A stretch of DNA of 63,369 bases, the filler included, from Theionarchaea archaeon (lineage in GTDB: Archaea; Methanobacteriota_B; Thermococci; Methanofastidiosales; SZ-28-30), in the NCBI GenBank assembly GCA_018992565.1. It is 4 parts of 4 records of this genome, joined end to end, with 100 filler letters (N's around TTAATTAATTAA, not from the genome) between each part and the next. Parts side by side here need not be neighbours in the genome. Positions count along the whole stretch, not along the records: positions 51,526 to 57,493 come from JACVGW010000123.1; 3 more parts are not named here. The stretch is one strand, 5' to 3'. This document shows positions 25,751 through 57,593 of the stretch, in pieces. How positions within the stretch are numbered: position 1 is the stretch's first letter; each line of letters begins with the position of its first letter. The position numbers and the translations under genes were made by a program. A model generated the notes under the pieces. The model made no database searches and was not told the origin of the DNA. It was given only the letters and a program-made list of their open reading frames with translations.

Positions 25751-25850
25751 NNNNNNNNNNNNNNNNNNNNNNNNNNNNNNNNNNNNNNNNNNNNTTAATT
25801 AATTAANNNNNNNNNNNNNNNNNNNNNNNNNNNNNNNNNNNNNNNNNNNN
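25751..25850. other. Artificial scaffold join
   Basis: Ns flanking TTAATTAATTAA (stops in all six frames). Confidence 0.97.
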
Positions 25851-51425: not shown

Positions 51426-51525
51426 NNNNNNNNNNNNNNNNNNNNNNNNNNNNNNNNNNNNNNNNNNNNTTAATTAATTAANNNNNNNNNNNNNNNNNNN
51501 NNNNNNNNNNNNNNNNNNNNNNNNN
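51426..51525. other. Artificial scaffold join
   Basis: N-TTAATTAATTAA-N spacer. Confidence 0.97.
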
Positions 51526-51955: not shown

Positions 51956-53047
51956 ATGGGAAAGATCCTCCTGACCGAAAAGGAGAAGGAGCTGCTGACT
52001 CTCATAGGCAGATCTCCGCAGGTCACCACCAAGGGACTGGTCCAGTCTGCCCAGTACAAGCGGTCAAGCAGCATAGCACGGAAAATTGGGCAATTCAAGA
52101 TGCGCAACATGCTGCGCGGTCCCTTCTATGATCTGGATTTTGGCAGGCTGTCCAGGAACACCCTCTCCATACTCGTGTGTATCATAGAATTTGACCAGGA
52201 CTATGAGACTGTCATCTCTTACTTACAGTTGATTGAAACCCTCAGGTACGTGTATCCCGTTCTATCTCCCCATAAAGAGCTACTGAATGCAATTTTCATC
52301 TCCTCAGATAATGCAGCAACAGCTGACCTTCTCCAGCTGCTCAAAGATAATTACATTATTACAGAGTGTATTATCCGTCCCTACTCCCACAGGAGGGGAC
52401 TGGAAAATCCTGATCTCTTTGGAGATCCAGATCCTCCCCTGGACAACTTGCTGGAGCCCTGTGATATGCCAGATCTGTCCTTTGGATCTCACAGTACTAC
52501 CTGGAATGCATGTGATATCAGCATTCTCCCCTATCTGCAGGCCGGATACGGAGATTCACGGTTGATTGAAATTCTGAAGGCAGAGAGAAAAGACAATAAC
52601 CTGTTGAAATACGACCAGATAAAATATTCACGGAAAAAGATGCTTGAGAAAGGGCTCATTAGAGAAAGATATGTTGTGTATCCATTTCCATACCCTGAAT
52701 GTGTTGACTTTGAGCTCTTCATGAAGACTGAAGACATTGTACTGACCCGGAGAATACAGCACAACTTTGCCAGAGGAGCACGACTGCTCAAAGAGTATTC
52801 ACTGTGCGGAGGCTGGGGACGGGTGGGTATCATATCTCATCCCCGCTTTCTGACCGGATTGATGCAGAAACTGGATGCCATTGACGAGATCACACGAAAA
52901 GAGCTGTATCAACTTCGTTCTATCCCTGACAGAGGACGCACTTTTGACCGCCCCCTGGTGTTGACATACTTCGATCTTGAAAATCAAACCCTGAAGTATC
53001 CCTATCACCAGTATGAGAGGAAGATCAAAGAGAAATTAGAAGAGTGA
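51956..53047 (+). CDS. Tandem wHTH/Lrp-like protein, putative regulator
   Basis: LTEKEKELLTLI...SSIARKIGQF and WNACDISILPYL...IKYSRKKMLEKGLI, each followed by an alpha/beta region. Confidence 0.55.
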   Translation: MGKILLTEKEKELLTLIGRSPQVTTKGLVQSAQYKRSSSIARKIGQFKMRNMLRGPFYDLDFGRLSRNTLSILVCIIEFDQDYETVISYLQLIETLRYVYPVLSPHKELLNAIFISSDNAATADLLQLLKDNYIITECIIRPYSHRRGLENPDLFGDPDPPLDNLLEPCDMPDLSFGSHSTTWNACDISILPYLQAGYGDSRLIEILKAERKDNNLLKYDQIKYSRKKMLEKGLIRERYVVYPFPYPECVDFELFMKTEDIVLTRRIQHNFARGARLLKEYSLCGGWGRVGIISHPRFLTGLMQKLDAIDEITRKELYQLRSIPDRGRTFDRPLVLTYFDLENQTLKYPYHQYERKIKEKLEE

Positions 53048-53197
53048 CAGATTCCTACTTCTGGAGGAGTGGGTCTCGCATACCATGTGGCACAGATAAC
53101 TGTCAGAGTATTTCACATTTTTTTCCATTTTACTACACAAAAAATACTTATAATATTATTCTTTTCCCTGTTATAAAGGCAAAAAGGAGGTGAAAAA

Positions 53198-53560
53198 ATG
53201 AAAAAGAAATTGTATCTTGCACTTATGGGCGTAGCTGTTATATCTCTAGCCGTAGCAAGCGTAAGTGCCAGAACGTCTCCCTCCACCCCCCTGTACACGG
53301 TGAGAATGGAGCAGGCATCCAGTGAGTTGAACTTCTTGCCAACTGTCGTGAATGATTACAGCTATACTGCTGAACCGGGGTATAACCTGGACTATTACGT
53401 ACTGGGGAACGAAGGGGGTGCACCACTGCTGGAGACAGAATCCACCTGTGAAGGTTCCACCTGCCAGGAAACCTGCCCCCAGACGTGCCGCTACACATGC
53501 ATTGACACATGTCCCAAAACGTGTGCTACCTGTGCTCCCGAGTGTATTCCAAATCCATGA
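53198..53560 (+). CDS. Secreted small protein with C-terminal Thr-Cys repeats (RiPP-precursor-like)
   Basis: TATA-like ATACTTATAA, GGAGGTGA SD, signal peptide, core STCEGSTCQETCPQTCRYTCIDTCPKTCATCAPECIPNP, oligo-T terminator. Confidence 0.85.
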   Translation: MKKKLYLALMGVAVISLAVASVSARTSPSTPLYTVRMEQASSELNFLPTVVNDYSYTAEPGYNLDYYVLGNEGGAPLLETESTCEGSTCQETCPQTCRYTCIDTCPKTCATCAPECIPNP

Positions 53561-53587
53561 TTTCCTCTTTTTCTTTTTTTTATTTTG
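53561..53587 (+). terminator. Oligo-T terminator
   Basis: TTTCCTCTTTTTCTTTTTTTTATTTT after the stop. Confidence 0.6.
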
Positions 53588-54006
53588 ATCAGACGGTGGG
53601 CAGTTCTCGCAGTCCTGAATCCCCTGGGCACGTAAATGGGAAGAGTGACAGACGTCATAAACGATTATCAGTGAGACCCGAATCATAAGGACAGGTACAC
53701 AGTCACTCATCTCCTGTCAGAACCACATTCCCAGCAACTGGAACATTCCAGCTATAACCAAAGCATCATTCATGAAGTGGATGATCATGGGAACGTAATC
53801 ACACCAGATGCAGGNNNNNNNNNNNNNNNNNNNNNNNNNNNNNNNNNNNNNNNNNNNNNNNNNNNNNNNNNNNNNNNNNNNNNNNNNNNNNNNNNNNNNN
53901 NNNNNNNNNNNNNNGTCAGAACCACATTCCCAGCAACTGGAACATTCCAGCTATAACCAAAGCATCATTCATGAAGTGGATGATCATGGGAACGTAATCA
54001 CACCAG

Positions 54007-54090
54007 ATGCAGGTTAATGGCTATGCAATTGCCACAGGTAACAAGAAGCATTTTGAGCGAATTGAAGGGCTAAGAATATGGTCGAAATAG
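54007..54090 (+). pseudogene. VapC/PIN toxin C-terminal remnant
   Basis: MQVNGYAIATGNKKHFERIEGLRIWSK*; TxNxxHFxRIxGL is the PIN C-terminal motif; in-frame stop just upstream. Confidence 0.6.
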
Positions 54091-54811
54091 AACCTGCGCG
54101 TAAGGGTGCATCCGTTACATACTGAGTCTCCTGCAGAATTTTCATCATATTTCAAGCTCATCTGAAGCACTATCTCAGACGAGAGAGTTCTGACACCATC
54201 ATCCAAAAAATATAGAAGAAACGAGGATTTCTTATATGCGTTGAGAAGTCTGAGATTTTCAGGGGCAGGAAAAAATCCTGCAGTAATCCAGAATTCCTTT
54301 ATTATCCACGAAATCTCTCGTTGATGCTCCACACAGTGTACTGGTGCTGTAGGGCAAGGTTCTGGTGACATGGGCGTTCAAATCCTTTGTCCCTACAGCA
54401 CTATGACTTCTTCCTTCTTGCTTAATAGTCTTTCGGTTTTAATCTTGAGAAAAAAAGTGCATTTATAATAAACGCACGAAAAATATCTCCTCCATCCCCA
54501 AAATTTCCATATTGATGACAAAATTTACATTTATTCCCCCAGAGACTAGATGAACCCGGGGAACACAAGAAGAACCAGAATAGGATATCTGCGGTTTGAA
54601 CTGGCCAGCTGCAAGTCCACGGCATGTAACGAGGTGATTACAGCGGGAAAAGTATGATCCTGTTAGACTATTATAATTCGTAAAGAAGGAATTTTCAGGG
54701 TCGATTCCATTTTTACGTATGGGAGCGAGGAAGAGAGGACGGACAACATACAACCAAAAGGTTATTAAGATGAAATTCAGGTAGAACATACTCTCACGAA
54801 GGAGGCCGAGT

Positions 54812-57493: not shown

Positions 57494-57593
57494 NNNNNNN
57501 NNNNNNNNNNNNNNNNNNNNNNNNNNNNNNNNNNNNNTTAATTAATTAANNNNNNNNNNNNNNNNNNNNNNNNNNNNNNNNNNNNNNNNNNNN
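57494..57593. other. Artificial scaffold join
   Basis: N-TTAATTAATTAA-N spacer. Confidence 0.97.

Follow-up and report, generated by a model that had tools for sequence, protein, structure and literature searches.

What would an archaeon do with a small, apparently exported protein whose tail is a string of Thr-Cys dyads? The question is raised by an open reading frame (ORF) of 120 amino acids and a stop codon, on the plus strand at positions 53198..53560 of a 63,369-nucleotide window of DNA from the Theionarchaea archaeon assembly GCA_018992565.1. Based on the comparative evidence presented here, this ORF is a real gene encoding a small protein with three parts, namely a predicted signal peptide, a conserved N-terminal module (N-module) and a Thr-Cys repeat tail, as the first-pass annotation of the window had described it. 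It belongs to an unnamed family, whose members we refer to as TC genes, among the archaeal Cys-rich repeat proteins that have an N-terminal handle in common. With at least 432 clusters at 50% identity it is a large family; it is restricted to uncultured archaea of sulfidic sediments, and its strict T-C dyads, conserved handle, hypervariable acidic tails and homogenised 5' halves demand a specific chemical explanation. The one that we favour, tentatively, is an exported array of thiols that binds metal or sulfide.

One alternative is a chance ORF in DNA rich in Cys and Thr codons. Long antisense ORFs also occur in such DNA, and one of 154 amino acids (53246..53710) overlaps the gene, as is usual in repeat-like DNA; however, the frame has hundreds of in-frame homologues with a ratio of nonsynonymous to synonymous substitution rates (dN/dS) of 0.19-0.27, its Shine-Dalgarno (SD) and TATA-like signals are conserved and the same DNA occurs in 6 studies. 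This reading, to which we give next to no credence, is ruled out by the in-frame conservation. Selection was analysed in nine independent family pairs by the Nei-Gojobori method, in gapless columns only. The dN/dS ratio and amino-acid identity were 0.38 and 69% for the signal peptide, 0.19 and 81% for the N-module and 0.27 and 74% for the tail overall. Within the tail, Cys positions are 97% identical (dN 0.013, the ratio not being computable because dS is saturated) and Thr positions 94% identical (dN/dS 0.08), while all other positions reach 58% (dN/dS 0.53). Since synonymous sites are far diverged or saturated across these pairs (dS 0.5 or more), the Cys and Thr pattern is kept at the protein level. 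Tandem Repeats Finder (TRF) reports a single repeat at the gene, the T-rich stretch behind the stop codon, and zero DNA repeat within the ORF; the earlier claim that the repeats differ in DNA and are selected as protein is borne out. Gaps occur in 150 columns of the tail and 2 of the signal peptide, and in none of the N-module.

Each part of the protein can be recognised across the family. The first 24 residues of the window protein comprise MKKK, a 20-residue uncharged stretch (LYLALMGVAVISLAVASVSA) and VSA before an Arg, which match the basic n-region, uncharged h-region of ~15-20 residues and small-x-small c-region of predicted Sec-type signal peptides; AlphaFold2 (AF2) models residues 2-25 as a helix with a predicted local distance difference test score (pLDDT) of 86-90. 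Among 215 Met-starting family proteins, a median of 31 residues precedes the N-module motif, the median uncharged run is 21 residues and a Lys or Arg lies within the first ten residues in 198. The Sec-type signal peptide proposed at first pass is therefore well founded as a prediction, with cleavage probably after VSA. Behind it lies the N-module, in which P31, L32, R36, M37, S41 and F46 are invariant; in profile A3 (59 sequences) the mean column identity is 69% and P, L, R, M, S, F and Y are invariant. The window copy is Cys-free at residues 26-83, a stretch that includes TPLYTVRMEQASSELNFLPT, as had been noted of its "pro-region", but most paralogues have Cys there. Likewise, the Gly pair at which this region was said to end is real here (G73 G74), but a GG near the junction is found in just 81 of 289 family tails, and the proposal that it is a leader cleavage site is not upheld by such poor conservation. 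The tail itself is exactly as described, with nine Cys (C84, 89, 93, 97, 101, 105, 109, 112 and 116), of which C116 follows Glu and the other eight follow Thr, at spacings of 5, 4, 4, 4, 4, 4, 3 and 4, six of the eight being four. No confident fold is predicted for the whole: AF2 with an alignment gives a pLDDT of 53, the signal helix alone being confident, and the ESM Atlas model 0.50, both of which we count in favour of a thiol array. In the ESM Atlas there was zero usable feature match and every structure row had a TM score below 0.5, and sequence searches of the PDB with profiles A3 and A1 gave nothing meaningful (best E 0.46).

The source genome (2.8 Mb in 154 contigs, 88% complete) holds eight family copies on eight contigs, and the same eight, with no others, are picked out of its 24,558 ORFs by a regular expression for runs of TC units; N-module and TC tail are always found together there. 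A word-indexed search yielded 22 relatives, and a profile search of 1.84 billion representatives retrieved 432 at E<=1e-3, 262 at <=1e-10 and 90 at <=1e-30, while the N-module-only profile A3 retrieved 449 clusters at 90% identity. Tandem arrays reach seven copies (locus L037). The expectation of many paralogues with a conserved leader and a variable TC core is hence confirmed. Where names are given, they read "hypothetical protein", from metagenome-assembled genomes of Theionarchaea or Methanofastidiosia. No model for the family is present in the Pfam and NCBIfam copies searched; PF27846, which is not in that Pfam copy, has a precomputed match on 4 of the 120 family proteins listed. The literature searched held no paper on the Thr-Cys family, the motif PLYTVRMEQ or Theionarchaea Cys-rich proteins.

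In 289 distinct tails, Thr (20.8%) and Cys (20.7%) stand at 1:1, with 9.3% Pro, 10.8% Asp plus Glu and 2.0% Lys plus Arg. Tails are 30-176 residues long with a median of 16 Cys; 98% of them carry a negative net charge, the median being -7. Cys follows Thr in 80% of cases and 55% of the Cys spacings are four; in C-x-x-x-C units Thr stands at C+3 in 85% and Pro at C+1 in 23%, with N, S, P, Y or D at C+2. The number of Cys is even in 151 tails and odd in 138. Such absence of an even-number preference makes a fully disulfide-paired fold unlikely.

How these tails vary is seen most directly in two loci. Three tandem copies in L046 (L046:8600-10860) have the same DNA between about -45 and about codon 90, with two differences near the end of this stretch, and diverge thereafter by substitutions and indels. 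This pattern resembles gene conversion or recombination that did not reach beyond the 5' half. The L017 copy contains five perfect 9-nt units, GAAACCTGT, encoding E-T-C, in which slippage is seen directly. From these comparisons, slippage and recombination appear to reshape the tails under selection that is relaxed rather than positive, with strict preservation of the Thr-Cys dyads.

In the reading that we favour, this small protein would be exported through the Sec pathway and its signal peptide removed, the conserved N-module of 40-45 residues becoming the new N-terminus and serving as a handle for docking, folding or partner recognition. The remainder would be a poorly structured, strongly acidic T-C-x-x tail, presumably left without enzymatic modification, in which a chain of turns is suggested by the Pro and turn-forming residues that separate the dyads. 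Outside the cell, where the sediment is anoxic and sulfidic, its reduced thiolates would bind soft metal ions or the surfaces of metal sulfides or sulfur, perhaps assisted by neighbouring Thr hydroxyls and Asp and Glu carboxylates. Tail length and sequence would vary as set out above, while the promoter, the signal peptide and the N-module would be preserved or homogenised, and some copies would probably be controlled by an adjacent tandem regulator of the Lrp/AsnC type. We prefer this binding role because the tails are polyanionic and dense in thiols, their Cys parity is neutral, the habitat is sulfidic and a link to pyrite exists for the Crp proteins: the archaeal Cys-rich repeat proteins CrpA and CrpB are described in the available text of PMC13692751 as up-regulated on pyrite and as proposed metal binders. 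Of the disulfide or metal-binding mini-protein suggested at first pass, we retain the metal-binding, Cys-rich exoprotein and drop the full disulfide fold on the grounds of parity. If the thiols are free, these proteins are candidate extracellular scavengers of metal or sulfide in places where trace metals are locked in sulfides.

Metallothioneins (PF00131) are the obvious comparison: they too are small, have ~20% Cys and no stable fold without metal. Unlike them, the TC proteins have CxxxC rather than CxC or CxxC spacing, are strongly acidic, predicted to be exported and never without Thr. The window protein scores 13.7 bits against PF00131 (E 0.067; gathering cut-off 23), and a match of this kind is found in 1 of 26 members.

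Several observations weigh against a simple metal-binding array. Thr is kept as strictly as Cys, the two stand at 1:1 and Thr occupies C+3 in 85% of units, none of which is explained by metal binding, whereas a pairwise chemistry of Cys with Thr would explain both the conservation and the ratio. The CxxxC spacing with Pro departs from that of metallothioneins and PF00131 stays below its cut-off. The N-module, so strongly conserved right after the predicted signal peptide, looks like a recognition sequence. No RNA run is found among the runs that match the DNA of the window gene. Finally, one relative that we count as support for an exported and unmodified protein, P0023, is a singleton on a single contig. 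This protein of 656 amino acids has a signal peptide, the N-module, a GH25 muramidase domain (E 1.3e-29), ~60 TC units and a C-terminal hydrophobic segment, which is the layout of an ordinary surface enzyme. As a possible archaeal surface lysozyme with a TC stalk, P0023 is of interest in its own right.

The fixed C-x-x-T register, the 1:1 ratio and the equal conservation of Thr and Cys thus stand against a purely unmodified view and lead to the possibility of leader-guided cross-linking. Here, an enzyme acting in trans from elsewhere in the genome, a radical-SAM/SPASM ranthisynthase or another, would recognise the N-module and join each Cys with the Thr that lies three residues downstream, or form methyllanthionine; the resulting ladder of rings would be exported as HxsA is, with one enzyme serving many precursors as ProcM does. 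We rate this as rather unlikely. It would account for the combination of a conserved N-module with a hypervariable tail, including the 5' identity and 3' divergence of the L046 copies, and for the lack of an even-Cys preference, and a composition typical of lanthipeptide precursors, a core of Ser/Thr and Cys behind a conserved N-module, is indeed found. Enzymes that might do it are not scarce, as the source genome encodes 79 radical-SAM-like ORFs in its 2.8 Mb, often in clusters of 2-8. Precedents are CrpA/B with CrpC, HxsA (PMC13128918) and ProcM (PMC10783134), as far as the accessible parts of these sources describe them. If cross-linked, the TC proteins would be a new class of secreted polycyclic protein. 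Against the idea stand the length of the tails, up to 176 residues, the GH25 fusion and the gene neighbourhoods.

These were examined for 110 genes of the family, among which 77 are distinct at 90% identity; they were drawn from the source genome, 72 metagenome loci and L017. No conserved maturase neighbours the TC genes, nor does any recurring enzyme stand beside the 77 distinct genes. Of the 19 genes with at least 6 kb on both sides, 4 have a radical-SAM gene no more than 6 kb away, against a background of 16.7% at random positions of the source genome (P=0.39); the same is true of 1 of the 8 copies in that genome. The 26 radical-SAM ORFs of TC loci show two cross-locus links at 40% identity or more (one between a same-place pair, one to a 113-aa fragment) and are otherwise 22-34% identical to one another, so they do not form one orthologous family; in the source genome, their top matches sit on contigs without TC genes. 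The single YcaO protein of that genome is encoded on contig C46, not on the contig of the window gene. The LanB and LanC models (PF05147, PF04738) have zero match in the source genome, 88% complete as it is, and are equally silent in control genomes; no lanthipeptide enzyme was found among 112 neighbour ORFs of TC genes. The association with a maturase that the first-pass annotation had envisaged is accordingly not supported. The copy on C30 counts in favour of cross-linking, for it lies 735 bp downstream of a cluster (L011:465-9006) of a stand-alone PqqD-domain protein and five radical-SAM genes, the nearest of which has no close orthologue (best 31% identity) in three relatives lacking TC genes. 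Prediction of a complex between another radical-SAM protein (L076:9045-10463) and the N-module of the adjacent TC protein scored 0.00, which is evidence neither way.

Comparison with known repeat proteins sharpens the question. Enzyme-made thioethers in archaeal Cys-rich repeat proteins were shown just recently (Crp, 2026), in Methanococcus voltae, where the repeat proteins CrpA and CrpB have 47 N-terminal residues in common and a radical-SAM/SPASM enzyme, CrpC (TIGR04463), installs thioethers at C-X-X-Q/D, the Cys preceding its acceptor (Dieter et al. 2026, PMC13692751, from the part of the article available). The resemblance, drawn from this description and not from an alignment with the CrpA sequence, is considerable: both systems are archaeal, with paralogues that share an N-terminus (~47 near-identical residues in Crp) and diverge in their C-terminal Cys repeats, a Cys before a fixed residue (C-X-X-Q/D there, C-x-x-T here), an acidic repeat region, a low-confidence fold and a suggested link to metal or iron sulfide. 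Unlike Crp, the TC repeats have a period of four residues instead of 17 or 34 and the TC proteins a clear signal peptide, whereas the words "signal peptide", "secret" and "export" do not occur in the accessible text of PMC13692751. Moreover, no TIGR04463 enzyme is adjacent to a TC gene and none exceeds the cut-off in the source genome (43 matches, best 230.4 bits against 525); those on contigs with TC genes are just the weak matches of C30 (94-129 bits). Nine radical-SAM ORFs of this genome align with TIGR04463 over its full length at 150-230 bits.

The targets of CXXX-repeat radical-SAM enzymes (TIGR04114 and TIGR04117, with the maturase TIGR04115) also have a Cys at every fourth residue. Unlike them, the window protein has zero match to these models; TIGR04117 reaches E 0.07 or weaker in 2 of 26 members, TIGR04114 has zero match in the genome (the control also being silent) and TIGR04115 gives 54 matches to radical-SAM ORFs there, the best at 102.1 bits against a cut-off of 350, hence zero member. 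Prochlorosin precursors have conserved leaders, variable cores and scattered genes. The TC proteins are similar in their many scattered paralogues with a conserved front and a hypervariable rear bearing Thr and Cys, and dissimilar in their predicted signal peptides, their much longer "cores" and the lack of any LanM, LanB or LanC found (the LanB and LanC controls being silent). A solitary ProcM serves many prochlorosin precursors (PMC10783134, in the part available).

The HXS system, in which export of radical-SAM-matured repeat effectors was shown just recently in bacteria (2026), bears on another point. The first-pass annotation had regarded a signal peptide as atypical for ribosome-made peptides with post-translational modifications (RiPPs) that are modified in the cytoplasm. 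This objection loses some of its force, since HxsA, a His-Xaa-Ser repeat effector with the maturases HxsB/C/D, has a signal peptide, undergoes maturation by cytoplasmic radical-SAM enzymes and is then exported (PMC13128918, in the portion available); a signal peptide does not exclude such maturation. The TC proteins resemble HxsA as short-period repeat proteins with an N-terminal signal peptide. According to the same portion of that source, HxsA is basic and DNA-binding, with a peptidoglycan-binding domain, and its maturases are encoded in the same operon; no such operon is seen among the neighbour ORFs of TC genes, which were not searched with Hxs models. In its boldest form, the cross-linking idea would have one maturase serve many scattered exported precursors and turn every C-x-x-T into a thioether ring (ranthionine or methyllanthionine), which we consider unlikely. 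If true, ladders of 5 to >60 rings would pass through Sec, the hypervariable tails would form a library of polycyclic exoproteins, and an undescribed form of RiPP-like chemistry would act on secreted proteins. As a whole, the earlier interpretation is partly supported: its architecture of conserved leader and variable core is borne out, its maturase link is not.

A structural role is a further possibility. The T-C-x-x array might be an extended, protease-resistant spacer or a cross-linkable envelope component of a surface or matrix protein, with O-glycosylation of Thr or inter-chain disulfide, polysulfide or metal bridges possible and the N-module docking to the envelope. The TC array of P0023 stands between the GH25 domain and the C-terminal hydrophobic segment, the usual position of a stalk; the tails are of low complexity with 9% Pro and turn-formers (N/S/D/G) at C+2, odd Cys counts fit inter-chain links, and two of the eight copies in the source genome lie among glycosyltransferase or FemAB-like surface-decoration genes. 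Yet such glycosylation-gene neighbourhoods are not conserved across loci, P0023 stands alone, and proteins of 120-200 amino acids would be poor spacers by themselves. Most members have no other domain or anchor: a C-terminal hydrophobic segment was found in 0 of 152 by a crude test, which missed the hydrophobic tail of P0023. No longer fused forms were found with the window's own N-module as query, and with A3 the 120 proteins listed reach at most 233 amino acids. We judge a structural role to be quite unlikely.

Another candidate role is that of an effector, antagonistic or signalling and secreted in the manner of conotoxins or halocins, in which a mature part with a diversifying Cys framework follows a conserved signal and pro-region and is used against competitors or viruses. 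In its favour is an accessory distribution: in a search of 133 genomes of the class (99 at least 90% complete), the family is absent from all 132 others, among them two congeners and one genome of the same family. Presence and absence differ at two syntenic sites. One concerns the congener G032, in whose syntenic region there is no counterpart of the TC gene found among FemAB-like genes in the source genome; the other concerns L017, where a TC gene occupies an insertion of ~0.9 kb that separates the rRNA operon from a helicase gene, against 200 bp at this place in the source genome. The multi-copy tandem arrays with divergent tails and the fusion to a muramidase would also suit an effector. 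However, the dN/dS of 0.53 at tail positions other than Cys and Thr denotes relaxed, not positive, selection (gapped columns excluded), the orthologue of the window gene is near-invariant between samples (1-3 differences per 601 nt), there is no recurrent partner gene of an immunity-like kind and zero family match was found in the viral contigs searched. The anionic character of 98% of the tails is unlike typical cationic antimicrobial peptides and speaks equally against the antimicrobial product proposed at first pass. An effector seems to us improbable.

Around the inserted L017 copy, a search for mobile-element signatures found weak repeats and nothing more. The GC content of the 5' halves (0.44-0.49, against 0.467 for the genome) does not indicate a foreign origin. 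L017 also carries a complete archaeal rRNA operon (L017:890-6587) whose 16S gene, ~640 bp from the TC gene, is 96.6% identical to the 16S gene on contig C127 of the source genome. The Woesearchaeota label of the L017 contig is probably a binning error.

The features of the window locus are collected in Table 1. The gene has its own TATA-like element and SD, as first proposed, and probably its own terminator in the T-runs behind the stop codon. In the family, an SD of the GGAGGTGA type is present in 69 of 75 distinct genes, and 48 of these 69 have a TATA-like hexamer 15-55 nt upstream of it, often inside AAACCGAAAnnTTTATAA.

Table 1. Features at the Thr-Cys repeat gene, in coordinates of the window.
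Feature	Position	Strand	Evidence or remark
Tandem Lrp/AsnC-like protein, 363 aa (two HTH+RAM units; candidate assignment)	51956..53047	+	AF2, Foldseek
TATA-like promoter element CTTATAATATTAT	53147..53159	+	~38 nt upstream of SD; read from sequence
Shine-Dalgarno GGAGGTGA	53186..53193	+	ATG 4 nt downstream
CDS, Thr-Cys repeat protein (including stop)	53198..53560	+	100% match to contig C111 of the source genome; homologues; dN/dS <1 in all parts
Predicted signal peptide, residues 1-24 (MKKK, hydrophobic core, VSA)	53198..53269	+	Read from sequence
Conserved N-module, residues 30-66 (TPLYTVRMEQASSELNFLPTVVNDYSYTAEPGYNLDY; TPLYTVRMEQ...)	53285..53395	+	Invariant residues, profile A3, dN/dS
Thr-Cys repeat tail, T83 to C116 (9 Cys, 8 in T-C dyads)	53444..53545	+	Sequence
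T-rich stretch (T-runs) after stop, likely archaeal terminator	53561..53587	+	Sequence, TRF; terminator role putative
Beta-propeller repeat protein, 437 aa	54812..56125	+	TIGR04275, E 7e-71

The window consists of four contigs of the source genome, C101 (1-25750), C103 (25851-51425), C111 (51526-57493) and C114 (57594 to the end), separated by N spacers at 25751-25850, 51426-51525 and 57494-57593. Arguments from gene neighbourhood must therefore not cross these joints. The earlier statement that no maturase lies on the scaffold is true of the gene's own contig, C111, but with a length of merely 5968 bp this absence carries little weight. No long plus-strand ORF was found in 53561-54811, where long ORFs only were considered and a run of 100 N (53815-53914) begins 255 nt downstream of the gene. 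DNA near-identical to that of the window gene is present in 20 DNA runs from the 6 studies, labelled marine sediment, mangrove and soil.

Upstream of the gene, the 363-aa protein is modelled by AF2 with a pLDDT of 86.5 and a predicted TM score of 0.83. In the PDB, Foldseek matches it best to NirDL, a fused siroheme decarboxylase (4ch7, E 2.8e-8, query TM score 0.52), and also to many Lrp/AsnC regulators on either half; this predicted fold suggests the Lrp/AsnC assignment, Pfam giving a sub-threshold MarR_2 match (E 0.03-0.1) in 3 of 7 members. The protein may thus be a regulator or an enzyme of AhbA/B or NirDL type. Its family, which is without a Pfam model, is the sole enriched neighbour of TC genes: of 49 distinct genes, 7 have a member no more than 1.5 kb away, the background being 1.2% (P=2e-6, with the reservation that genomes of relatives are not independent samples). 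In twelve of the 16 places where it occurs, a TC gene is at most 450 bp away, and the two genes may diverge, converge or run in the same direction. The source genome has 10 paralogues of ~365 amino acids, and the family also exists in relatives that lack TC genes (10 of 133 genomes), so it is not dedicated to them. Downstream, the 437-aa propeller protein has a signal peptide and, towards its C-terminus, a hydrophobic segment with a charged tail behind it. The order regulator, TC gene, propeller recurs in L030 and L032, which is the synteny of one orthologous place and not a family-wide link. Another TC copy within 3 kb is found for 19 of the 77 distinct genes.

A side observation concerns the start codons of the family. 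In 12 of the 69 genes with a clear SD, the position of the usual ATG, GTG or TTG is taken by a near-cognate codon, ACG in seven, ATA in four and CTG in one, followed by the usual D/N-R/K-K. These genes are located in L077, L056, L035, L076, L090, L047, L012, L085, L045 (two), L013 and L011, and three of them are the source-genome paralogues on C68, C55 and C30. Their sequences suggest near-cognate initiation or damped translation.

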